The position numbers were made by a program, and so were the translations under genes. Of a DNA stretch of 64,000 nt, positions 19,964-32,609 are shown in pieces. Under the pieces are notes generated by a model, which worked only from the letters and a program-made list of their open reading frames with translations, was not told the DNA's origin and did not search any database. Source of the DNA: Candidatus Adlerbacteria bacterium (GTDB taxonomy: Bacteria > Patescibacteriota > Minisyncoccia > Phycocordibacterales > SBAW01). The stretch lies in NCBI GenBank assembly GCA_903851045.1, contig CAINNF010000015.1, positions 32,644-96,643 on the forward strand, given 5' to 3'. The first letter of the stretch is position 1. The number at the start of each line of letters is the position of its first letter.

Positions 19964-20194
19964 CTAGTGATGTAAGACTCGAACGATCAAGTCGGGCGAG
20001 ATGAAGGCTGCGGAGCCGGTCACCCGCACCCTGCCGTCTTTGATCTCCTCCACGTCGACGTGGGCACCATCACCGAGGACGACACGCATACCGACCTGGT
20101 GGAGCCCTAGCGCCTCGAGCTTGAGCCGACGATCCCGTAGCGCCATTCGAGGCAGCGGTGGCGTCTTGATCTTCCTGTCCTGCCAATCGAACAT
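19964..20194 (-). CDS. Hypothetical protein (76 aa)
   Basis: AAGGAGAGG SD upstream of the ATG. Confidence 0.45.
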   Translation of the reverse strand: MFDWQDRKIKTPPLPRMALRDRRLKLEALGLHQVGMRVVLGDGAHVDVEEIKDGRVRVTGSAAFISPDLIVRVLHH

Positions 20195-20253
20195 CGCACC
20201 TCTCCTTTCCTTCCCCGTTATACGCTAAAACGAAGACGAGCGCCACCGTGTAT

Positions 20254-20278
20254 AAAAACCGCCCCTGGGTCGGGGCGG
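20254..20278 (-). terminator. Rho-independent terminator for gene 20288-20863
   Basis: CCGCCCC-tgggtc-GGGGCGG with a T-run on the minus strand. Confidence 0.55.
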
Positions 20279-20287
20279 CGAAGACGA

Positions 20288-20863
20288 TCAAAAGGTCGGA
20301 AGGATGGTGTACGATCGCTCTCGACCCTTTCGCACCTTCACGTGTACGCAGCGCTCACTGGGCCTGATCTGTCGCAAAGATCGACGTAGTCGTGGGTACG
20401 CGAGCTTCTCGAGCGGATCCCCGGCAAGATCCCCCCACTCCGACACAAGCACGTACCCAAGCGTGATGGAGCGACACGACCCGTCCGTGTCCTCGAGGAC
20501 GGCGACGAAGATGAACTTCTCGTGTACCGTCGTGCCGTCAGGATAGTTGCATGCGAGGTCACGCACCCGGTCGAGCGTCGCCTGGCCGAAGGATCTGTTC
20601 ATGTAGCGAAGCGGGAGCACCGTCACGACACTCCCGACCCCACGATCGACGGCCGCGATGAAGTGCGCCTGATCCTGCACGCTGTAGAACAAAAGATAGA
20701 TGATCCTCGTGCCGGGCTTGCGACCGACAAAGACGAACTTATTCTCGTCGATCAACGCCCGCACCCGCTCCAACGGCAGGCGAAGCCGCTTCTGAGCATG
20801 CACTACCGCATGCCCCGTCGACACCGCTCTTTTCAACACGTCCTCCTGTCCCGTTTCGGGCAC
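20288..20863 (-). CDS. Hypothetical protein (191 aa); exact start uncertain (GTG or downstream TTG)
   Basis: ORF with CAGGAGGA near an alternative TTG start. No recognisable domain. Confidence 0.45.
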   Translation of the reverse strand: MPETGQEDVLKRAVSTGHAVVHAQKRLRLPLERVRALIDENKFVFVGRKPGTRIIYLLFYSVQDQAHFIAAVDRGVGSVVTVLPLRYMNRSFGQATLDRVRDLACNYPDGTTVHEKFIFVAVLEDTDGSCRSITLGYVLVSEWGDLAGDPLEKLAYPRLRRSLRQIRPSERCVHVKVRKGRERSYTILPTF

Positions 20864-20876
20864 GTCCCACTTTCAT

Positions 20877-20996
20877 TCAACCAAACAGCATTCTACACAA
20901 CATACCCAACTTGTGCACACGAGAAAGGCCTTCCGCGTTGTCGGATTCGACCAGCATAGGGTCTACATACTCGGCTCGTGTCACTGATTCGTTCAT
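20877..20996 (-). pseudogene. hsdR-derived relic: first 13 codons of hsdR fused to a segment matching hsdR near nt 22615-22642, then decayed
   Basis: Minus strand reads ATGAACGAATCAGTGACACGAGCCGAGTATGTAGACCCT. This is 36/40 nt identical to the hsdR 5' end at 24535-24574. It is followed by GTCGAATCCGACAACGCGGAAGGC, near-identical to hsdR 22615-22642. Its ATG sits 1 nt after the TAA stop of the upstream gene. Confidence 0.6.
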
Positions 20997-20997
20997 A

Positions 20998-22053
20998 TTA
21001 TGTTGCTATAGCCGCTTCGTGTCGTGCGCGCTCGACCATGAACCGCACCCCCTCGGACATGTTCTCTGCCTCGAGCTTGATGTCGGGATGCGCATGATGA
21101 AAGACTCGAAACACTTCGTCAGCGAATGCCTGCCCAACCGTTGGCACCTTGTCGAAGTCGAAGACGACATACTTGAACTTCTCCAGCCCCGTTAGCACAC
21201 GCCGCGCTTGGGAGCGAGAGATATGTACACCACCTATTGTATACAACTTCACGCGCACCTCGGTCTTGTCGAACCCATAGTCACTGGAGTCATCAAGGTT
21301 GGTGTACTTTTTAAATACGTCCTGCAAGTGTCGCTTGGACGTAGCCGAGAGCGTGAACGATACGCGCGTACCCCGCTTCATCTTCGACACCTTTTTCACG
21401 AACACATCTGGTGCTTTGTTGTCGACTATCAGCTGATATCCAAAACTGTCGAGGATGAACATATCAGCCACGCGCGAAGTAAAGAAGATACCTTCGCCCG
21501 AGTGCGACTTCGGCATCGTGGTTGTCTTACCTTTGAGAATATCTTGGATAGCCTCAAGTTCGGAGGCGAGGCCGCGCTGCCGCATCACGTTGCGAAACAC
21601 ACCGATGCCTGAATCTTGAATGACGAACGAGAGCGTCTTGTGGGGCACCGACACCTCGACCCCGATGCGCACTGACTGCGAGTGTTCGATAGCATTGTTG
21701 AACATCTCTGAAAACGCATACGTGAAGATACTCCGCACATTCTCAGGCAAATTCTCAAGCGTCGGGAATGCATGTTCTATCTGGTCGAGAACCTTGTGCT
21801 CTTCGAGCTGCTTGTTCGCAAAAGACTTAGCGTATCGAAGCGGCAAGATCTCTGGGTGCGCCCGAGCGTACTCGGGCAACACATAGAATGCATAGCGCGT
21901 CGCGCCAAACTTCATAAGCTGTCCATTGGCCACAAGCTCCTGGAGCAAAACGTGTATATATTGTCGCGACACGCCAAAGGAGTCTGAGAGTTCAGTCGAG
22001 GTTATCCTCCCCTTCTGCTTTGCCAAAGCAACTATATTTTCGGGTGTAATCAT
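20998..22053 (-). CDS. Winged-HTH - GHKL (histidine-kinase-like) ATPase - STAS-like (DUF4325) domain protein
   Basis: N-terminal wHTH (ITSTELSDSFGVSRQYIHVLLQEL). GHKL N-box EMFNNAIEHS, G1 IQDSGIGV, G2 SHSGEGIFF. C-terminal ...VFDFDKVPTVGQAFADEVF matches the STAS-like DUF4325 pattern. Confidence 0.7.
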   Translation of the reverse strand: MITPENIVALAKQKGRITSTELSDSFGVSRQYIHVLLQELVANGQLMKFGATRYAFYVLPEYARAHPEILPLRYAKSFANKQLEEHKVLDQIEHAFPTLENLPENVRSIFTYAFSEMFNNAIEHSQSVRIGVEVSVPHKTLSFVIQDSGIGVFRNVMRQRGLASELEAIQDILKGKTTTMPKSHSGEGIFFTSRVADMFILDSFGYQLIVDNKAPDVFVKKVSKMKRGTRVSFTLSATSKRHLQDVFKKYTNLDDSSDYGFDKTEVRVKLYTIGGVHISRSQARRVLTGLEKFKYVVFDFDKVPTVGQAFADEVFRVFHHAHPDIKLEAENMSEGVRFMVERARHEAAIAT

Positions 22054-22231
22054 AATGGTATCGACAAGTCATTGTCAACCAAAGTATATTCTATTGTCAA
22101 CCCATTGTCAACCAGCCACATCACACGCACCTGTGAATAAAAAGGGTACTCAGCACACTGCCAGACTCTACCCCTGCTCCGTCTCCCAAATTTTTATTTT
22201 CATAGAGTACTGTATATCCCCAGACTAGTAA

Positions 22232-24574
22232 CTATTTAGAATATAGCCCGATTTGAAAAGCGAAAAACTGCGAACGAATAGCGTCCACGTCCCCGAGTAC
22301 CTGTTCGGCGTCTGAGAGCGCATGATATTTAAGATTAAGAAGCACTGGCAACTTCTCCTCACCAAGTTCCATGTCGCCCCCCTCCTCGTACTTCTTGAGA
22401 ACAAACGACAGAAACTCTTTTTGTGCTCCGCTCACTGAATCAAGGATGGTGCTTTTGTTGCGCTCCACTCTGTCCTTTCGTGTTATTGGTCGTGTTGCGA
22501 ACGAGACATATGACAGCACATCAAACAGGTCGCTGTTTTCGGCATCAATCATTTTCTGCAACGTTTCCAACTCATCACGACCAAAACCAAGCTCGGCGAT
22601 ACGATCGAGAAATGCCTTCCGCGTTGTCGGATTTGACCAGATGTTTCGAAGCTCTTCTTCATTCTTAAAGAACTCGGGCATCGCACCAAACATATTTTGA
22701 ATAAACTCTTCGGCAGAGATTGGCTTACCGTCTGCACCCCAAAACGAAGTCGAGATCATGTACTGGATTTCTCGCTCCTTGCCGTCTCTGAGTTTGATTA
22801 TAATTTTCTTTTTCTGTTCAATAGGCTCTGGAGTTTGTTCAGGCTCTGTGTGCTCCCTGCGCTCTTTTGGCTTCTTGGGAGTACTGGGTTCCACATCCTC
22901 TGCCTCAATCGGCTCGCCATCCCACTCTGGGTCAGCGAAGTGTTTATACGCATCCACGAAATCGTAGATCGTAAAATACTCCTTACCGTCAAACAGTCGG
23001 GTGCCGCGACCGACAATCTGCTTGAACTCAATCATTGAGTTCACAGGACGCATCAAGACAATGTTTCGCACATTGCGAGCATCCACACCAGTCGACAACT
23101 TTTGCGAAGTGGTGAGAATGGTCGGAATACTCCGCTCGTTATCCTGGAATTCGCGCAAAAACTGCTCGCCGCGGGCTCCATCGTTCGCCGTGACACGGAC
23201 GCAGTAGTTCGGGTCGGTGCTGTCTTTCATCTGATTCACCAAATCGCGCACCGCGAGCGCGTGCGTCTGATTGGCACAAAAAATAATAGTCTTCTCGTCT
23301 TGGCGTATTTCATCAAGCACGATACGTACGCGCTTGGCCTCGCGCTCTTTGATCTCAATAATCCTATTAAAATCCGCTTCTTCGTATATCTTACCCTGCT
23401 CTACTTCACCCTCGACTACCTCGTCGTCCGACGTGTACACATAGTCGTCCAAGGTCGTCTGGATGCGCTTCACTTTAAACGGCGTCAGGAAGCCGTCATT
23501 GATACCCTGCTTGAGCGAGTAGGTATAGAGCGGATCACCGAAATACTTGTAGGTGTCTACATTGTCGACGCGCTTCGGGGTCGCCGTGAGACCTAGCTGT
23601 ACCGCTGGAGCAAAATAATCGAGGATGCTGCGCCAGTTGGATTCGTCGTTCGCTCCCCCACGGTGACATTCGTCGATAATAATCAAATCAAAAAAGTCTG
23701 CCGGATAATCGCCAAAATACGGCGTATTGTTTGACCCACCCTGCGGTGAGGTACTCGAACCCGTCATGAACGTCTGAAAAATAGTAAAGAATATGCTCCC
23801 GTTGGTCGGGATTGCGCCTCGCTTGCGGATCTCGAGCGGGTTAATACGTACAAGTGCATCCTCGGGAAAAGCGGCGAAAGCATTGTACGCTTGGTCTGCA
23901 AGAATATTTCGATCGGCCAAAAAGAGCACTCGCGGGCGACGCTTGCCATCGCGCTGAAGTGTCCAACGGGCTTGGAAGATCTTCCATGCGATCTGGAATG
24001 CGATAGTCGTCTTCCCCGTCCCGGTCGCGAGCGTGAGCAGGAGTCGCTTCTTGTTTTCGGCGATAGCATCGAGCGCGCGATTGATAGCAATCTCTTGGTA
24101 GTATCGCTTGCCATACTCACCCTCAAGAGGGATCGAAGCGAATGTCTCCTTCCACTGCGCCGTCTGTGACTCCTCGTGGCCAAACAGCTGCGCCCACAAC
24201 TCCTCAGGTGTTGGGAACTTCTCGACATATTCCTCCTTTCCACTCTTCATCGACACACAATAAATCTCTCGACCGTTGGTCGAATAGGTGTGCTCGATTT
24301 GGAGCTTCTCTGCGTACGCCTTCGCCTGGGCGACACCTTCGGTCGCAGGCAGGTCGAGCGCTTTCGCCTCCACCACAGCGAGCTTCTGGTTCTTGTACAC
24401 CAACACATAGTCCGCGATCTCGGGTTTGGCGCGCACGCCACCCGTCTGGATCTTGCCGTCCGTAATGCGAAACTCGCGCAACACGCGCGACCCTTCCACC
24501 TCACCCCAACCGGCTTCCTTGAGCTTAGGGTCTACGTACTCGGCTCGCGTCTCTGATTCGTTCATTAAAACCAT
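22232..24574 (-). CDS. hsdR: Type I restriction enzyme R subunit (compact, 780 aa)
   Basis: N-terminal PD-(D/E)xK nuclease motif (D...VVEAK), Walker A LATGTGKT, DECH box (IIDECHRG), helicase motif VI (QIVGRGTR). The true start may be the second ATG (MNESE). Confidence 0.9.
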   Translation of the reverse strand: MVLMNESETRAEYVDPKLKEAGWGEVEGSRVLREFRITDGKIQTGGVRAKPEIADYVLVYKNQKLAVVEAKALDLPATEGVAQAKAYAEKLQIEHTYSTNGREIYCVSMKSGKEEYVEKFPTPEELWAQLFGHEESQTAQWKETFASIPLEGEYGKRYYQEIAINRALDAIAENKKRLLLTLATGTGKTTIAFQIAWKIFQARWTLQRDGKRRPRVLFLADRNILADQAYNAFAAFPEDALVRINPLEIRKRGAIPTNGSIFFTIFQTFMTGSSTSPQGGSNNTPYFGDYPADFFDLIIIDECHRGGANDESNWRSILDYFAPAVQLGLTATPKRVDNVDTYKYFGDPLYTYSLKQGINDGFLTPFKVKRIQTTLDDYVYTSDDEVVEGEVEQGKIYEEADFNRIIEIKEREAKRVRIVLDEIRQDEKTIIFCANQTHALAVRDLVNQMKDSTDPNYCVRVTANDGARGEQFLREFQDNERSIPTILTTSQKLSTGVDARNVRNIVLMRPVNSMIEFKQIVGRGTRLFDGKEYFTIYDFVDAYKHFADPEWDGEPIEAEDVEPSTPKKPKERREHTEPEQTPEPIEQKKKIIIKLRDGKEREIQYMISTSFWGADGKPISAEEFIQNMFGAMPEFFKNEEELRNIWSNPTTRKAFLDRIAELGFGRDELETLQKMIDAENSDLFDVLSYVSFATRPITRKDRVERNKSTILDSVSGAQKEFLSFVLKKYEEGGDMELGEEKLPVLLNLKYHALSDAEQVLGDVDAIRSQFFAFQIGLYSK

Positions 24575-24629
24575 TATGCAACGCGGCAGATTTTATGTAA
24601 ATGACCCACAGGCGACACATGAACACCCC

Positions 24630-25022
24630 TTAAAAGAGATGTTTGTAGGCTGGGTAATTATTCTTAATGATCTGCTGCCACTCTGCTGTTTCGTTGTGCC
24701 CGCTGAGATCCGTCTTGGTATACACGAGCAGCACCGACACCGACTGCTGCTGCTTGTGCCACGCGACTATACAGCGATTCCCCGACGTCTTAGCAGACTC
24801 TTGTGTCCCAGCAACACGAAACTTCGTCTTGATGATCAATATATCACCAGCATCACACACCGTCTCAGCCCTGCTCGTTAAGATGAGTGCATCGATGCGC
24901 TCAAGCTCTGCCATAATCGCGAGCAACGTGACGTCCCATTTCGCCTTGTATTTCTTTGAAAAACTTTTGATAAAGTGACGCTCGGCAAACACCTCGATAT
25001 TAACAGCATTATTGCCTGGCAT
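24630..25022 (-). CDS. Putative toxin partner of the adjacent PanA-like antitoxin (130 aa; RelE/ParE-like fold suspected)
   Basis: Small basic protein 7 nt downstream of the HTH-DUF4065 gene. The ...RCIVAW...VSVLLVYTKTD pattern loosely resembles the RelE/HigB C-terminal strands. Confidence 0.4.
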   Translation of the reverse strand: MPGNNAVNIEVFAERHFIKSFSKKYKAKWDVTLLAIMAELERIDALILTSRAETVCDAGDILIIKTKFRVAGTQESAKTSGNRCIVAWHKQQQSVSVLLVYTKTDLSGHNETAEWQQIIKNNYPAYKHLF

Positions 25023-25029
25023 ATATGCG

Positions 25030-25722
25030 CTAGAACACCTCGTCGGGGTCCTCTTGGGTGATCAGTTCGTACGGAATAATTTCGTCCATGCGGCACAGCA
25101 CATAGGGCAGCTGATTGTGCGTAAACGTAACGATCTCCTGCGTCTTTTTATCTTTCCACTTCGCGGCGATCTTCTTGAGTAACGCTTGCTCTTTGGGTGA
25201 CACTGTTTGTATCTTTTCGTTCCTATTACTCTCTGACTCACCGACCAAGAACATCTCCTTTCCGTTCTCATTCTTGTGGTCGATCACGATCTTACCATCC
25301 TGCTCGAGCTCATCAAGCGCGCGAAAGAACGCATCCGGCACGGGGCCGTATGCGATCTTGCGATATGACATACCACTCATGCTCTCCATGTGCTCATAGA
25401 ACCAAGCGAAGTCCGCCAAATAGAGCAGCTTCGCGAGCTTGGTCTTGGGTATCTTACCGTCTTTCGACAGGTTCATGCGTAGATAGAGCAGCAACATCTG
25501 CTTGTACTTGGCGATGTTCGGAATATTCCCTGACAATAACTCGTCGACAGTGATACCAAACAAACTCGCCAGCTTCTGAGCTTCGTCAGTATCGAGCTTC
25601 TGCTTACCCACCTCGATGGCCGTATACGTGGGACGAGACACCCCAATAGCCTTCGCCACCTGCTCTTGGGAAAGCTTGTGGGCGACGCGAAGCTCCTTGA
25701 GCTTTCGCATATACGTATTCAT
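25030..25722 (-). CDS. HTH_XRE + DUF4065 (Panacea domain) protein; PanA/SocA/GepA-like antitoxin
   Basis: N-terminal Cro/C1 HTH (LRVAHKLSQEQVAKAIGVSRPTYTAIEVGKQ). C-terminal KTKLAKLLYLADF...AYGPVPD matches the DUF4065 signature (KLxKLLY...GPV). Start set at the internal ATG after a TM-less, low-complexity over-extension. Confidence 0.7.
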   Translation of the reverse strand: MNTYMRKLKELRVAHKLSQEQVAKAIGVSRPTYTAIEVGKQKLDTDEAQKLASLFGITVDELLSGNIPNIAKYKQMLLLYLRMNLSKDGKIPKTKLAKLLYLADFAWFYEHMESMSGMSYRKIAYGPVPDAFFRALDELEQDGKIVIDHKNENGKEMFLVGESESNRNEKIQTVSPKEQALLKKIAAKWKDKKTQEIVTFTHNQLPYVLCRMDEIIPYELITQEDPDEVF

Positions 25723-26053
25723 ACCCAAAAGTGTATACGAACCATGTAAAGAAGTCAAGCGATTTTGGTCGAAATATTGACGTACAGATTCTGAAGCGTA
25801 AAATATGTCTACTGGCATGGTCGAGCCAGGTAAGAACAAGTGATCAAATCGTAATAACATGAGTAAGACAAACGGAATCAGAAGCAGTAAGAATCTCGCT
25901 AGTAAAGCGGCGAAAGCTCTTAGTAGTGGTAGCACCAGCAAGAACACAAAGTCCCTTGCTGCAAACACCCTCGGCAACAGAGCAAAAAAGAGTCACTAGA
26001 CGGAATGAAACTATGCAAAAATCCACACTATGCCAAGTAGGGTGGATTTTACT

Positions 26054-27244
26054 TTACAACTCCCCTGCGAATGCCTGCTGCAAAATCGACTTCTTGAGCT
26101 CATCCAAACAAGCCAACTTCTTGGCATAGATCTCCTCCAGCTTTTTGGTCTCCCCCGCCAAAGCATCCAACTTTTTAACTATCGCTTTTTGTTCTGGAAA
26201 AGGCGGCAACAGAAACTCAAAGGCAAATAGATGCTCTCGATTTACCTTTGGCATACCGGCTCTATCCGAACCCAAAATTGCATACTTAGTGAAACCAGAT
26301 GTTAATAGTAGATAATACAAAAAATCTCTATTCAATGTTTTTTCGTCGGGCAATAGAGGATATATGTCCGCACTGCACAGTCCGTCAAAATCTGGCCTAA
26401 CTACTTTCATTAAGTATGGTCGTATTTTGCTGTATAACACCATATTCTTATCAAAAATAAACTTTCCAGAAATAAGTTTTTCTTCTTTTGCTGTCTTAAC
26501 ATCAATAAGCTCTCCTGTCTTTGCTTGAATATTTCCAGCTCCAACGTGCCGCATATTTAGAAACCGCTTCTCCCTCGGGTCGACCAGTTTTGAAGCAATC
26601 GCGCACACAGTATCTAGTCGAATTAATTTCCATCCCTCCCCCGGATTAGCAAAAACACCTTGTAAATAAGACTCAAAAAGCTCGCGGGAATTCTGCAAAT
26701 TCTTTTCTGTGTTCGCTTTCGCCTTTTCAATTTTCTCAAAAACTTCATCCAGAATTTTCACAATCCTCTTTTGCTCGGTTAGGGGTGGGAGTGGAATTTC
26801 TATTTCGCCCAAATTTTTACGACTAATTCTTGTTCTTGTCGTCCCACTAGTTTTTCCTGCAACTGCATCTAAGTAGAGATTTGATTGAGAATAGTAATTA
26901 AAATATCGGGGAATAATTTTTAGTGGATCAAAACGAGCAATACTACAATCAACCGCAGTTATCATTCTTTCCCCGGTATTTGGCAAAATACATGCACGAC
27001 CTACAGGGTCGGGCAGACGAGAGATCAGGCAGTCGCCTTTAAAAATTTCGGTGCACCTCAATCTGTTAAATGTCTTTTCCGAAATATAACGCGCCTTCTC
27101 TCCCCTGTCTTTGAAAACACCGACACCTACGTTGCCGGTCTGGATAAGACGAATTCCATCTCTCGATTGATCCTTACTCTCTATCCAATTACCATCCGTA
27201 AAGACCTTACAGACTTCACCTAGTTTCTTTGTTTGTAACATCAT
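26054..27244 (-). CDS. hsdS: Type I restriction-modification specificity subunit (two TRDs)
   Basis: Conserved central and C-terminal repeats (LPPLTEQKRIVKILDEVFEKIEKAK... / LPPFPEQKAIVKKLDALAGE...). The start overlaps the upstream gene's stop as ATGA. Confidence 0.9.
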   Translation of the reverse strand: MMLQTKKLGEVCKVFTDGNWIESKDQSRDGIRLIQTGNVGVGVFKDRGEKARYISEKTFNRLRCTEIFKGDCLISRLPDPVGRACILPNTGERMITAVDCSIARFDPLKIIPRYFNYYSQSNLYLDAVAGKTSGTTRTRISRKNLGEIEIPLPPLTEQKRIVKILDEVFEKIEKAKANTEKNLQNSRELFESYLQGVFANPGEGWKLIRLDTVCAIASKLVDPREKRFLNMRHVGAGNIQAKTGELIDVKTAKEEKLISGKFIFDKNMVLYSKIRPYLMKVVRPDFDGLCSADIYPLLPDEKTLNRDFLYYLLLTSGFTKYAILGSDRAGMPKVNREHLFAFEFLLPPFPEQKAIVKKLDALAGETKKLEEIYAKKLACLDELKKSILQQAFAGEL

Positions 27245-28218
27245 ACGTATTGAGCCTTGTTTTCTTCGCAATGTTTTTTTACAAAATTAAACCAGTTTTC
27301 GTACCAATACCATGTCTTTTCAATTTCTACCCCAAACCCTTTAGACAGATCTTTTGCATTTTCGCTTTTCCAAAGCTGTGTATGTTTATGTAATCCAAAC
27401 CGGGTATACCCAATCTTGTTCATTTCGCTAACTATTTTTTTGGGCAAATATTTTGGCTTTTCTTTATCTCTAAAAGCCCAATACTCTTTATTTAGGCCTT
27501 TTGCTATTTCAGAATTTGGATCCACAAACTCTATCACCTTATCAGCTTGACCTTTTCTATTTGCAGTCTTTGGGACAAACAAGACTCTATAAGAAAATCT
27601 ACTATTATTGAACTCATCCTCAGGCAGTCCTTCATCAAACGCCTCAATATATGTGGCAATATTACTAGGAAGATCTTTATAATCTGAGAGCTGATTAATT
27701 TGTTTCTCACTTAGTGAGGAGAATTGTAAACTGAATGAAAGGTGCTTTTCGATACTTTTTTCGTTCGGAAATAATTTTTTTAGATACTCATTATAATTCA
27801 AGCAGCAAGCCTGAAATCTTGCACTTAAAAGATCGTCTATTCTTGTAGTCATCTGATGTTCGATTTCGTGCCTAAGACCTATCAGAAAAAGCAGGTTGGA
27901 CACAGCAACCCTGTCGATTGGTGATTTTTTATCATTCAAGCACCGTTCAAGTTCCCAATATTTATAAGCACCATTCTTTGTAAAATCAAACTTCCTGTTT
28001 TTGCCTTTTTGCTCAAAATACCTATATTCAATTTTCTTGCTACGATAGTACGCATGCAACAGATATGTCCACGCAATAATTGCTAGCACTATAAAAGATT
28101 CGGATTTAAACTGAATATTTGGATTATTAAAAACTTGAACAGCTGTCAATATAGACTCTTTCGATTTTAAGATTAGTTCGTCTTTGACTGAGTGAAGCTT
28201 TCTCTTTCTCTTTGCCAT
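27241..28218 (-). CDS. AT-rich hypothetical protein embedded between hsdM and hsdS; candidate HEPN-motif (Rx4H) Abi-like protein
   Basis: 325 aa at about 33% GC, 6 nt downstream of hsdM, with ATGA coupling to hsdS. Contains LIGLRHEIEHQ (R-x4-H). The HEPN assignment rests on this one motif. Confidence 0.5.
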   Translation of the reverse strand: MAKRKRKLHSVKDELILKSKESILTAVQVFNNPNIQFKSESFIVLAIIAWTYLLHAYYRSKKIEYRYFEQKGKNRKFDFTKNGAYKYWELERCLNDKKSPIDRVAVSNLLFLIGLRHEIEHQMTTRIDDLLSARFQACCLNYNEYLKKLFPNEKSIEKHLSFSLQFSSLSEKQINQLSDYKDLPSNIATYIEAFDEGLPEDEFNNSRFSYRVLFVPKTANRKGQADKVIEFVDPNSEIAKGLNKEYWAFRDKEKPKYLPKKIVSEMNKIGYTRFGLHKHTQLWKSENAKDLSKGFGVEIEKTWYWYENWFNFVKKHCEENKAQYV

Positions 28219-28224
28219 ACGGTC

Positions 28225-29688
28225 TTATATTTTTCCTCCAAGCTTACCCGTGATTACGGAAATTTCTTTATCAAGCGCTTTCATTGCTTTTAAAATCTCC
28301 TTAGGGCTGCGCAGCGTCACTTCCCCGCCTTTGTTGGGGTTCTTGACTGAGAGGTCAAAGGTTTTTGGGTCTATGTCTTTAGCGTCCACGCTCCAGGAAT
28401 TTTCGGAGTCGGCTTTGGTTTTTTGGAGCTTCACGAAGTCGGCGAGGTCGGCTTCGCTCAGTGGATTTGTTTTACCGAGGTTGCGTGGGAGGTTGAGTTG
28501 GTAGAACCACACCTTGCGGGTTGGTTTGCCTTTTTCGAAAAAGAGGACGACTGTTTTGACTCCGGCACCTTGGAAGGTCCCGCTCGGGAGGTCGAGGATG
28601 GTGTGGAGGTTGCAGTTCTCCAGCAAAAGCTTGCGCAGGCTCACCGAGGCGTTGTCGGTGTTAGAGAGGAAGGTGTTTTTGATGACGATGCCAGCGCGGC
28701 CGCCAGCGCGGAGAATTTTGATGAAGTGTTGGAGAAAGAGGAAGGCCGTCTCGCCTGTTTTGATAGGGAAGTTTTGTTGGATCTCGCTGCGGATACCCGC
28801 GCCAAACGGCGGGTTGGCGAGGACGATGTCATAGCGGTCTTTCTCTTGGATGTCGGCGATATTTTGTGCGAGGGTGTTGCCGTGCACGATGTTGGGCGCT
28901 TCGACGCCGTGGAGGATCATGTTCATCGTGCCGATGATGTAGGCGAGCGATTTTATCTCTTTGCCATAAAAAGTCTTCTTTTGGAGCGTCACCCAGTCTT
29001 TTGGTTGCAGCTTCTCGGTGTCCCCTTTCATGTAGACGAACCCTTCGGCCAAGAAGCCCGCCGAGCCGACTGCCCCGTCGTAGACGGTCTCGCCAATTTT
29101 TGGATCAACGACTTTGATGATTGTGCGGATGAGCGAGCGCGGCGTATAAAACTCGCCACCGTTGCGTCCCGCGTTGCCCATGTTCTTTATCTTGTCTTCG
29201 TAGAGGTGCGAGAGCTCATGCTTTTCGGAGTCGGTGCGGAAATGCATCGTATCGACTATGTCGAGGATGTTGCGCAGCGTATAGCCGCTCTGGATCTTAT
29301 TCTTCAACTCGCTAAATATCTCCCCTATTTTATATTCGATAGTGTCAGGACTCTCGGCACTCGCTTTAAATTTCTTGAGGTATGGGAATAGGTCACGATC
29401 GACGAACGTGTTGAGGTCGTCGCCCGAGAGTGCTTTATTGTGGTCGAGTTTGCCCTGTGGCGTCTTGGGTGCTGCCCAGACCTCCCAGCGGTACTGTGGC
29501 GCGATGATTGGTTTGTAGGCTCGGCCGGAGAGCTTCGCCGCTTTCTTCTTTTCTTCCTCCAAGTCGTCGAGGTACTTGAGGAAGAGGATCCACGACGTCT
29601 GCTCGATATAGTCGAGCTCCGTCCCCACCCCCGCGTCGCGGTGGAGTATGTCGTCTATGTTCTTAAACGCCTGCTCAAACATGTTCAA
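28225..29688 (-). CDS. hsdM: Type I R-M N6-adenine DNA methyltransferase subunit
   Basis: NPPFG catalytic motif (VLANPPFGAG), an AdoMet-binding region, and the N-terminal HsdM helical domain. Confidence 0.9.
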   Translation of the reverse strand: MNMFEQAFKNIDDILHRDAGVGTELDYIEQTSWILFLKYLDDLEEEKKKAAKLSGRAYKPIIAPQYRWEVWAAPKTPQGKLDHNKALSGDDLNTFVDRDLFPYLKKFKASAESPDTIEYKIGEIFSELKNKIQSGYTLRNILDIVDTMHFRTDSEKHELSHLYEDKIKNMGNAGRNGGEFYTPRSLIRTIIKVVDPKIGETVYDGAVGSAGFLAEGFVYMKGDTEKLQPKDWVTLQKKTFYGKEIKSLAYIIGTMNMILHGVEAPNIVHGNTLAQNIADIQEKDRYDIVLANPPFGAGIRSEIQQNFPIKTGETAFLFLQHFIKILRAGGRAGIVIKNTFLSNTDNASVSLRKLLLENCNLHTILDLPSGTFQGAGVKTVVLFFEKGKPTRKVWFYQLNLPRNLGKTNPLSEADLADFVKLQKTKADSENSWSVDAKDIDPKTFDLSVKNPNKGGEVTLRSPKEILKAMKALDKEISVITGKLGGKI

Positions 29689-29713
29689 AGAGTACCACCC
29701 CTACCAATTTTCG

Positions 29714-30088
29714 CTATTCCCCCGCCAGTTCGGTGTACTTTTTGTGGTTGCCTTTGGATTTTTCTACCGGGTATTTTGCTTCGTTCTTTTGGAGTTTGTC
29801 GAGGAAGGCTTGGGAGACGTCGATGTGGAGGTCGTTGGCCATCAGGAGCACCCAGTAGAGGACGTCCGCTAACTCTTCGGCGATGTCTTTGGAGTTGGAG
29901 ATGACGTACTGCTCGATCTCCTGTGGGCTCTTCCACTGGAAGTGTTCGAGCACTTCGGCGGCCTCCAGCGTCAGCGAGATGGCGAGGTCTTTGGGGTTGT
30001 GAAACTGCTTCCAGTCTCGCGCGTCGCGAAACTCACGCACCTTCTTCGTAAGGTCTTTGATGTTCGACATATGCACATACTCTACCAA
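29714..30088 (-). CDS. MazG-like nucleotide pyrophosphohydrolase
   Basis: EAAEVLE...ELADVLYWVLLMA EExxE/D helices typical of the MazG/NTP-PPase all-alpha fold. 25 nt upstream of hsdM. Confidence 0.65.
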   Translation of the reverse strand: MVEYVHMSNIKDLTKKVREFRDARDWKQFHNPKDLAISLTLEAAEVLEHFQWKSPQEIEQYVISNSKDIAEELADVLYWVLLMANDLHIDVSQAFLDKLQKNEAKYPVEKSKGNHKKYTELAGE

Positions 30089-30191
30089 ATGTACCGACTT
30101 TGACTATGACGGCGTGCGTTGACACGATTCCATCATTTCTTGTATGAATAGTGCAGTGTTCTTTACGCAAACATCCGACAGGAGAGACCGC

Positions 30192-30542
30192 ATGGTCAAG
30201 GAAAGAGACGAACGGAGGATCATCCCGTTCCCCACTAGGCCGCCCGGCCCAAGCGAGCCCGTGCACTACGTGGGTATAGCAGTGATCGACTTCGCACAGC
30301 GAAAGGCTGGCGACGAGTTCTACCTATCGACCGCGCGCGGGTTTGGGTACCGGCTCACCATCACAAACACGCGAGCATACACCGCCACGCTCGTCGCCTG
30401 TACGCACAAAGGTCCGTTCGTCGAACGTGAGATCACCGTGAGGGACGGCAAGATCCACACTGGCCGCAAACTCGCATACGTGTTCGGCGGCGCGCTCGAG
30501 CACACGGCGGACGACATTACATTCATCTATCTTCTGCTGTGA
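30192..30542 (+). CDS. Hypothetical protein (116 aa)
   Basis: Internal ATG with ACAGGAGAG SD. A terminator follows. Confidence 0.45.
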   Translation: MVKERDERRIIPFPTRPPGPSEPVHYVGIAVIDFAQRKAGDEFYLSTARGFGYRLTITNTRAYTATLVACTHKGPFVEREITVRDGKIHTGRKLAYVFGGALEHTADDITFIYLLL

Positions 30543-30552
30543 CGCAGCACAA

Positions 30553-30586
30553 TAAAGACCCGGTCCAACGTCGGACCGGGTCTTAT
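30553..30586. terminator. Bidirectional rho-independent terminator
   Basis: GACCCGGTCC-aacgt-CGGACCGGGTC flanked by A/T runs. Confidence 0.65.
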
Positions 30587-30596
30587 GCAATGTGGT

Positions 30597-30812
30597 CTAT
30601 GGCAAACGTTGCGGCCGCACGGACGATGGTTCTCCGCGATCAGCCGGGTGTTGCAGGGCCGACTCGATCGACACGTACACATGATGCACGTAGTTCTGGA
30701 GCGCGTACCCCCAGACACCGCACACCGTAAGCGCAATGACCACGAACAGGCCGATGCCGAGCGGCCACGAGTCTTCAGGCACCGGTCTGAACTGGAACTT
30801 ATCTTCTGTCAT
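30597..30812 (-). CDS. Hypothetical small membrane protein (71 aa)
   Basis: Internal ATG with AAGGGG SD. One TM helix. Confidence 0.35.
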   Translation of the reverse strand: MTEDKFQFRPVPEDSWPLGIGLFVVIALTVCGVWGYALQNYVHHVYVSIESALQHPADRGEPSSVRPQRLP

Positions 30813-30950
30813 CACAGACCCCTTTTGTGAACATGTAGCCTTGTGCATTAAACACGAAATTGTACAAAACGCAACACTCCCGATCACGCACAAAAACACC
30901 CCAAATCGGGGTGTTTTTGTAAACATACAAGATGGCCTGTATATTTTTGC

Positions 30951-32609
<1,659 letters not shown>

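Follow-up and report, generated by a model that had tools for sequence, protein, structure and literature searches.

What is a pair of small genes doing in the middle of a Type I restriction-modification (R-M) operon? The question is raised by a locus of a Candidatus Adlerbacteria bacterium (assembly GCA_903851045.1, contig CAINNF010000015.1, positions 32,644 to 96,643), the 64,000 nucleotides (nt) of which are called the window here; all positions are those of the window. Its minus strand carries panA, the gene of an antitoxin candidate of 230 amino acids (aa; 25030-25722, ATG start, TAG stop), and, after a gap of 7 nt (25023-25029), panT, the gene of a toxin candidate of 130 aa (24630-25022, ATG start, TAA stop). 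Upstream of the pair lies hsdS and downstream hsdR. From conserved sequence features and structural models, we conclude that this cassette is probably an autonomous type II toxin-antitoxin (TA) module of the PanAT kind, whose toxin would be a RelE/HigB2-like mRNase. PanAT systems, which are built on antitoxins with the Panacea domain (DUF4065), have been described by Kurata et al. (2022, PNAS; PMC8832971) and Ernits et al. (2023, PNAS; PMC10440598).

An earlier inspection of the DNA letters, referred to as the sequence-only reading, had proposed a PanA-like antitoxin with a small toxin candidate of no clear family. Both open reading frames (ORFs) were recovered on the minus strand where they had been placed, along with the motifs KLAKLLYLADF and AYGPVPD. 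The same genes of 230 aa and 130 aa have also been called independently on the identical locus in public data, namely a 202-kb ENA scaffold and Logan assemblies. The start of panA at position 25722 is indicated by its first methionine, which is kept in 74 of 76 homologues, and by a database entry of 230 aa that is 100% identical to PanA. A longer version of 315 aa starting with TTG (25030-25977) was rejected because of the conserved Met1, because the promoter described below lies inside the extension, and because public calls give 230 aa.

The two genes are tightly linked. By scanning one genome per species, 183 relatives of panT were found, and 80 of their loci were fetched and examined (single loci are given by L numbers). 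Directly upstream of panT and on the same strand, 78 of the 80 loci contained a PanA homologue with HTH and Panacea domains (E-values from 1e-63 to 1e-137; HTH, helix-turn-helix), and the remaining two are cut off by the end of the contig. The conservation of the small ORF beside DUF4065 homologues, on which the sequence-only reading had made its proposal depend, is thereby borne out. When all neighbouring ORFs were clustered, panA and panT alone turned out to be constant, everything else varying by locus. A constant pair amid varying neighbours is what characterises a mobile module of two genes. In 23 loci the genes overlap by 11 nt, and in 40 others they stand 4 to 7 nt apart; because of these overlaps and the gap of 7 nt in the window, it is probable that translation of panT is coupled to that of panA. 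For their two-gene systems, Kurata et al. asked for adjacent genes not more than 100 nt apart, present in at least two species and lying outside a longer conserved operon (PMC8832971). Here the gap is 7 nt, the pair occurs across species-representative loci, and no longer conserved operon was seen.

That the 230-aa protein is of the PanA type, as had been suggested, was confirmed by Pfam, which assigned HTH_3 to residues 8-62 (E 8.5e-17) and SocA_Panacea (PF13274) to residues 96-204 (E 8.9e-14; 52.8 bits at a cut-off of 25.7), the latter corresponding to positions 1-109 of the 113 positions of the profile. At E<=1e-5, 2538 homologues were found, the best 120 of which show identities of 73-90%. 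The AF2 model of PanA (pLDDT 82) comprises a five-helix HTH of the Cro/C1 type (residues 3-64) and a Panacea/DUF4065 domain (approximately residues 70-209). Two segments were modelled with low confidence, the GPV loop (residues 121-128) and the C-terminal tail IPYELITQEDPDEVF (residues 207-230), and both are strongly conserved in sequence. The GPV motif (G126-P127-V128, within AYGPVPD) was invariant among 60 homologues, and conservation of the C-terminus extends over IPYELITQEDP..VY. A Foldseek search of the PDB with the PanA model gave matches to the HTH domain only, and no solved Panacea structure surfaced.

In the systems studied by Kurata et al. (PMC8832971), the GPV motif was critical for neutralisation, and the PanAs bound their toxins directly without any need of ClpXP or Lon. 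According to Ernits et al. (PMC10440598), Panacea can neutralise directly where no other neutralising domain exists, and the HTH domains of PanAs are treated as autoregulators. Since the PanA of the window possesses HTH and Panacea domains only, we infer that it neutralises its toxin directly through the Panacea domain and/or the conserved tail.

Fold and conserved residues of the toxin candidate

The 130-aa ORF yielded no match when it was used as a single sequence to search Pfam, NCBIfam, PADLOC and PDB. In PHROGs, its sole match was phrog_5869, a group of unknown function (E 1e-3). As far as curated sequence models are concerned, the statement that the protein belongs to no clear family thus holds. 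Nevertheless the family is large: 495 homologues were found at E<=1e-3 (best 120 with identities of 65-82%), and an exhaustive profile search yielded 216 clusters at 50% identity. Together with the linkage to panA, these numbers show the small ORF to be a real gene, far from a product of chance. Homologues bearing a name are listed as 'hypothetical protein' and come from metagenome-assembled genomes of Patescibacteria (Candidate Phyla Radiation, CPR), and essentially the whole family is labelled as Patescibacteria. Two cassette loci, L035 and L063, are labelled 'Methanosarcinales archaeon' and 'Gammaproteobacteria', all other members belonging to Patescibacteria; for these two labels, an error in binning is more likely than a true host, horizontal transfer being the alternative.

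The AF2 model of PanT, calculated with an alignment of 51 sequences (pLDDT 85.4, pTM 0.80), shows the characteristic fold of the RelE/ParE superfamily, i.e., a strand (residues 6-9) and a long helix (11-41), followed by four strands (52-57, 61-67, 82-89 and 94-102) and a C-terminal helix (111-129). The top 26 Foldseek matches of this model in the PDB were almost all toxins of that superfamily (RelE, HigB, HigB2 and PfiT), YafQ ranking somewhat lower. RelE chains of archaeal (1wmi), E. coli and Thermus origin were among them, the best match being 1wmi_A (E 3.7e-3, probability 1.0, TM 0.77 normalised to the target). A hidden Markov model (HMM) for the PanT family matched in the PDB the V. cholerae HigB-2 chains alone. 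The E-value of this match was 0.4 with a profile of close homologues and 0.008 when 104 divergent representatives were used, the register remaining unchanged and the next unrelated match being at 0.5.

Ribosome-dependent mRNases of the RelE/HigB2 type carry a basic active site on the sheet surface, which in RelE comprises Lys52, Lys54, Arg61, Arg81 and Tyr87. The active site of HigB2 has been determined by mutagenesis to consist of Arg51, Arg64, Tyr82 and Lys84, of which Lys84 is the most important (Hadzi et al., 2017; PMC5416850). In the HMM alignment, these residues correspond to R69, R83, Y101 and K103 of PanT. R83 is kept in 103, K103 in 102 and Y101 in 98 of the 104 distant representatives, and K65, which resides in the preceding strand, is kept in 103 of them. 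At the position of R69, the family exhibits K, A, R or S. Hence K65, R83, Y101 and K103 are candidate active-site residues.

Because the fold, the profile and the residues, each of them a modest line, agree with one another, we assign PanT to the RelE superfamily. It is most likely a divergent member with HigB2 as its nearest relative and, judging from model and alignment, would act as a ribosome-dependent mRNase. By fold and profile, the protein thus resembles the RelE/ParE superfamily, with HigB-2 coming closest. Nor is the type of partner new, as the sequence-only reading had suspected: Dataset S1 of Kurata et al. (2022) lists PanA partners matching HigB-2 and RelE, namely the untested T14 of Methanobrevibacter (HigB-2 by HHpred, 99.7%) and T28 of Taylorella (RelE/YoeB).

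Two of the loci disclosed a second pair of a similar kind. In L002 (2372-3441) and L046 (9252-10308), another protein with HTH and Panacea domains (PF13274, E 1.3e-14) is followed by an ORF of 111 or 112 aa, which gave no Pfam match but shows a sequence pattern like that of RelE; in L002, this pair is located directly after the first PanAT pair. The alignment of the 111/112-aa ORF with the toxin family of the window by hhalign (E 0.027) had the same register, the conserved R and YxK being aligned. This hints at PanA with a RelE-like toxin as a recurrent theme in CPR genomes.

Transcription of the cassette

Immediately upstream of panA, a promoter scan revealed a promoter on the minus strand (25730-25758) composed of the -35 hexamer TTGACT (25758-25753), a spacer of 17 nt and the -10 hexamer TACACT (25735-25730). 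The ATG of panA follows approximately 7 nt after the -10 region. Across 75 loci, the flanks of which are unrelated, DNA-level conservation extends over the 65 nt upstream of panA, where the elements occur in the order GCTTGACTT.TTTACA (-35), TATATACT (-10) and ATG. By the distance between the -10 region and the ATG, the panAT mRNA is predicted to be leaderless or nearly so.

Further upstream, the conserved region contains a box (25767-25782, minus strand; CGTCAATATTTCGACC in the window) with the consensus TGTCAA-N4-TCGACA, an imperfect palindrome of 16 bp. With one mismatch at most, it was detected 59-63 nt before the ATG in 64 of the 75 loci. We regard the box as a candidate operator, to which PanA may bind. 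However, the box could be a divergent promoter instead. On the plus strand, it reads as a -35 region (TTGACG) belonging to a promoter-like site at 25777-25804, and a divergent -10 region (at least 5 of 6 matches) was present in 24 of the 64 loci as compared to 6% in controls.

Divergently to panA, the window contains a Lys/Ser-rich ORF of 46 aa (MSKTNGIRSSKNLASKAAKALSSGSTSKNTKSLAANTLGNRAKKSH; 25859-25999, plus strand), the -35 region of which is the conserved box. It was considered as a part of the cassette and rejected: since L001 (65% identity) and L058 (50%) are the only loci that share it at this position, it is not a general component.

Directly after the stop codon of hsdS, there is a terminator-like hairpin with a T-run (26018-26050, minus strand; arms of 13 nt, 92% complementary, 7 nt between them), and analogous hairpins follow hsdS in L001, L036 and L042. 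On the other side of the pair, the spacer of 64 nt between panT and hsdR harbours a promoter-like element (24573-24601, minus strand; TTTACA-17-CATAAT, 10 of 12 matches). The start of hsdR is probably at 24565, 9 nt downstream of the listed position 24574; the protein would then begin with the conserved MNESETR, and the N-terminus MNE(S/A)ETRAEYIDPKL is indeed conserved. The -10 region ends 7 nt before this probable start. Moreover, a -10-like box was found 6-11 nt before the ATG or GTG of hsdR in all seven other R-M loci bearing PanAT (L001, L021, L036, L042, L046, L052 and L055). A terminator between panT and hsdR was not found. Due to its own promoter, the hairpin after hsdS and the separate element in front of hsdR, panAT is considered an autonomous transcription unit, and the predicted signals divide the locus into three units, hsdM-DUF3644-hsdS, panAT and hsdR. 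In front of panA and hsdR alike, a -10-like hexamer ends 6-11 nt from the start codon and a Shine-Dalgarno sequence is lacking, which suggests that leaderless mRNAs may be common in these organisms.

According to the mechanism that we propose, PanA would be made first, starting from the cassette's own sigma-70-type promoter and probably from a leaderless transcript, and panT would probably be translated in a coupled manner. PanA would bind the toxin and neutralise it directly, the likely contacts being the conserved, flexible C-terminal tail and/or the Panacea domain with its GPV loop. With its Cro/C1 HTH, it would also act on the -35 region and the conserved palindromic box and so repress the promoter. 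Once freed, the toxin would most likely enter the ribosomal A site, cleave the mRNA under translation and thereby arrest growth. The cassette itself has been inserted between hsdS and hsdR of a Type I R-M operon, at a recurrent site of cargo. PanAT pairs are known to work as type II systems by direct binding (PMC8832971).

The hsdS-hsdR junction as a site of cargo

The sequence-only reading had located the pair inside a Type I R-M locus, and this proved to be correct. It is a discrete insertion flanked upstream by hsdS (26054-27271; Pfam Methylase_S, 7.9e-29; 395-396 aa in public gene calls) and downstream by hsdR (22232-24574; ResIII, 6.3e-37; EcoEI_R_C, 5e-24). Farther upstream and likewise on the minus strand are a gene for a DUF3644 protein of 325 aa (27241-28218), which is embedded between hsdM and hsdS, hsdM itself (28225-29688) and, upstream of hsdM, the gene of a MazG-like pyrophosphohydrolase (29714-30088). 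The GC content of the DUF3644 region and hsdS is 37-40% compared to 55-60% in the flanks. Over almost its entire length, the DUF3644 protein matches PDC-S19, a candidate defence family of PADLOC (E 2.8e-162). As DUF3644 has been described in the literature as a HEPN (RNase) domain, the operon therefore holds a second embedded effector candidate of the RNase type. Directly 3' of hsdR, a gene for a protein of 351 aa (20998-22053, minus strand) was found, for which Pfam indicated an N-terminal winged HTH, HATPase_c and DUF4325 (STAS-like). A close homologue of it (E 5e-142) is located near another PanAT pair (L025), and it may be a further passenger of the defence island. An Rfam scan of positions 20000-31000 gave no match.

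To describe the junction, 80 close relatives of hsdR (62-75% identity; L081-L160) were taken from metagenomes, 60 of which have hsdS upstream and are informative. In 25 of these, hsdS abuts or overlaps hsdR (e.g., L083), whereas the other 35 carry cargo of 0.2-3.4 kb. Because hsdS and hsdR are in direct contact at such empty sites, PanAT is an insertion. The cassette itself occupied the junction in none of the 60 relatives and was found in none of the 80 searched, and the junction is thus a variable cargo site that is not specific to PanAT. The cargo includes Fic/DOC proteins (8 loci), SLFN_AlbA_2 with HATPase_c_4 (4 loci, besides another between hsdM and hsdS), RhuM, Bro-N, a ParA-like ATPase, 23S_rRNA_IVP and several proteins without a Pfam match. 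The cargo of L136 is a 722-aa protein with AAA_13 (PF13166), the Pfam family to which PrrC/RloC belong. The eight loci bearing PanAT are interspersed with loci lacking it in a neighbour-joining tree of hsdR; therefore, the cassette has undergone repeated gain or loss. Variable as well is the hsdM-hsdS junction, with cargo in 19 of 45 loci; in the window it is occupied by DUF3644, in the nearest relative L001 by an AAA ATPase of 473 aa. Around the insertion of 1.49 kb, a search for target-site duplications and flanking repeats revealed only short chance matches.

Could the pair be a guardian of the restriction system? In this reading, which is compatible with a TA module and which we deem possible though unlikely, the cassette would serve abortive infection, and Panacea would sense a phage cue (anti-restriction or the loss of R-M, as with PrrC) and set free the RNase. 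The hsdS-hsdR junction has already been described as a hot spot, occupied by PrrC in EcoprrI and by DarTG2 in enteropathogenic E. coli (EPEC), and genes embedded in Type I R-M loci often serve defence ('guilt by embedding'). The Fic/DOC, SLFN_AlbA_2-HATPase, RhuM, Bro-N and AAA_13 cargo of the close relatives points in the same direction, and so do the neighbours of other family members. A MazG-like gene is situated upstream of panA in seven PanAT loci without R-M genes (L003, L008, L017, L028, L032, L033 and L053), where it was identified by phmmer with the MazG-like protein of the window, itself recognised by Pfam. Between it and panA lies a protein of 670 aa, in which a P-loop NTPase region and a C-terminus resembling the S24/LexA peptidase were seen by eye; this recurrent neighbourhood is a candidate defence module. 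Judged by eye from the translations, further neighbours are a DNA methyltransferase-like ORF beside a DUF262+HNH-like ORF and proteins with a Fic motif, and some loci adjoin housekeeping genes.

On the other hand, embedding is not consistent. Only about 7 of the 80 members of the panT family (approximately 9%) have an R-M setting, and in view of this number and of the absence of the cassette from the 60 hsdR relatives, its association with R-M is facultative. In addition, the cassette possesses its own promoter and is set apart from hsdS by the terminator-like hairpin. A role in abortive infection is plausible by association, while a specific tie to the restriction enzyme is unlikely as a general rule.

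DarTG2 and PrrC resemble the pair in being toxin-type effectors at the same junction of Type I R-M operons, which has been described as a hot spot where recombination brings in defence cargo. They differ from it in that DarTG2 performs DNA ADP-ribosylation and PrrC is an anticodon nuclease for tRNA-Lys, the toxin of the window being a predicted mRNase. PrrC has been demonstrated to be functionally coupled to its R-M enzyme, whereas the family of the window resides mostly outside R-M loci.

Competing explanations and meaning of the cassette

Several points weigh against a HigB2-like mRNase. The statistics of the RelE homology are modest (Foldseek E approximately 4e-3, profile E 8e-3), and the equivalent of Arg51 of HigB2, R69, varies within the family. 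When the 104 divergent members were compared with Pfam one by one, RelE (PF06296) appeared once at E 0.014 among many unrelated matches, i.e., as noise. Eight PanTs of Kurata et al. (PMC8832971) showed no toxicity in E. coli. Finally, the RelE/ParE fold also houses gyrase poisons of the ParE type and does not separate the two activities.

The last point leads to a reading in which the TA pair is the same and PanT is a ParE-type poison of DNA gyrase, a reading to which we ascribe a small chance. ParE-type PfiT chains (9w3a) were among the Foldseek matches, ParE domains occur among the PanA partners in Kurata 2022, and the long N-terminal helix of PanT (residues 11-41) recalls the helical hairpin of ParE. 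However, the best fold matches and the sole profile matches are mRNases (aRelE, RelE, HigB and HigB-2), and near-invariance at the positions of Arg64, Tyr82 and Lys84 of HigB2 is not expected for a ParE-type toxin.

Slighter still is the prospect that, in the copies embedded in R-M loci, Panacea or the conserved, disordered tail senses a phage attack on restriction (by anti-restriction proteins or through the loss of HsdR/HsdMS) and releases the HigB2-like mRNase. If this were true, ultra-small Patescibacteria would possess a 'restriction guardian' analogous to PrrC, which would have arisen from a portable leaderless TA module spread between defence islands.

A type VI system like SocAB, in which PanA would be a proteolytic adaptor handing the toxin to ClpXP, is very improbable. 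It is suggested by SocA, the founding Panacea protein, which acts as such an adaptor, and by a weak match of PanA to the NCBIfam model SocA_antitoxin (E 0.016). Yet this match is far under the cut-off (14.9 bits versus 190), the PanAs that Kurata et al. assayed all neutralised independently of ClpXP and Lon, forming stable complexes with their toxins (PMC8832971), and the toxin of the window is RelE-like and not SocB-like.

Hardly tenable is the last explanation, by which PanA would be a controller like the C-proteins that times hsdR, and the small protein an accessory factor: although the HTH of PanA matches C.AhdI and C.BclI structurally as well as 'Control_protein' of PADLOC (1.7e-8), and a terminator in front of hsdR was not detected, C-proteins are matched by any HTH of the XRE family, the fold of the small protein is that of a toxin and its residues of the catalytic type are conserved, the pair is mostly found outside R-M loci, and hsdR has its own -10/-35-like element before the start in all eight R-M-embedded loci. 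For the last two of these reasons, the panA promoter was also rejected as a driver of hsdR.

Understood as a PanAT module with a RelE/HigB2-like toxin, the cassette shares with known PanAT systems a Panacea domain with GPV, an antitoxin-first bicistronic operon, a gap below 100 nt, the distribution over many species, an N-terminal HTH (the catalogue of Kurata et al. comprises 343 PanAs with HTH) and a RelE/HigB2-like partner. It deviates by a toxin family that lacks a curated model and is apparently restricted to Patescibacteria. Among the catalogued systems, the predicted PanT clusters that match HigB-2/RelE, such as T14 and T28, come closest to it. The catalogued HigB2-like partners considered here are paired with PanAs without an N-terminal domain, in contrast to the HTH-bearing PanA of the window.

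Compared to HigB2/HigA2 of V. cholerae, PanT exhibits the same order of core elements (beta2, basic loop, beta3, beta4 and C-terminal helix) and conserved residues aligned with Arg64, Tyr82 and Lys84, but its identity to HigB2 is only about 15%, the equivalent of Arg51 is variable, and with 130 aa including the long N-terminal helix it is larger than HigB2 (110 aa). The antitoxins are unrelated: HigA2 neutralises by an N-terminal helix and strand and has its HTH at the C-terminus, whereas in PanA an N-terminal HTH is followed by Panacea. Furthermore, higBA modules are arranged toxin-first (PMC5416850), the cassette of the window antitoxin-first.

PanA with HigB2- or RelE-like partners (Kurata et al., 2022) and the insertion of toxins or TA modules between hsdS and hsdR (DarTG2, PrrC) are already known, and the cassette does not overturn the current understanding. 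New are a sizeable toxin family, apparently restricted to Patescibacteria and recognised by no curated model, its tight pairing with one lineage of HTH-bearing PanAs, and a conserved promoter of putatively leaderless type together with a candidate operator. In the text of Kurata et al. (2022) and the supplementary files considered here, neither Patescibacteria nor Parcubacteria were found to be mentioned. The locus adds to the cases in which Type I R-M operons use the hsdS-hsdR junction as a cargo slot, and with a promoter and an operator-like box conserved across 75 loci, the cassette offers a clean case for studying regulation by Panacea antitoxins. Its practical value lies in annotation, by means of an HMM for the toxin family, and in a testable candidate for the way in which Panacea handles toxins of the RelE type. 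By this cassette, the RelE/HigB2 branch would gain a well-populated toxin family, and the PanAT repertoire would be extended to CPR bacteria.

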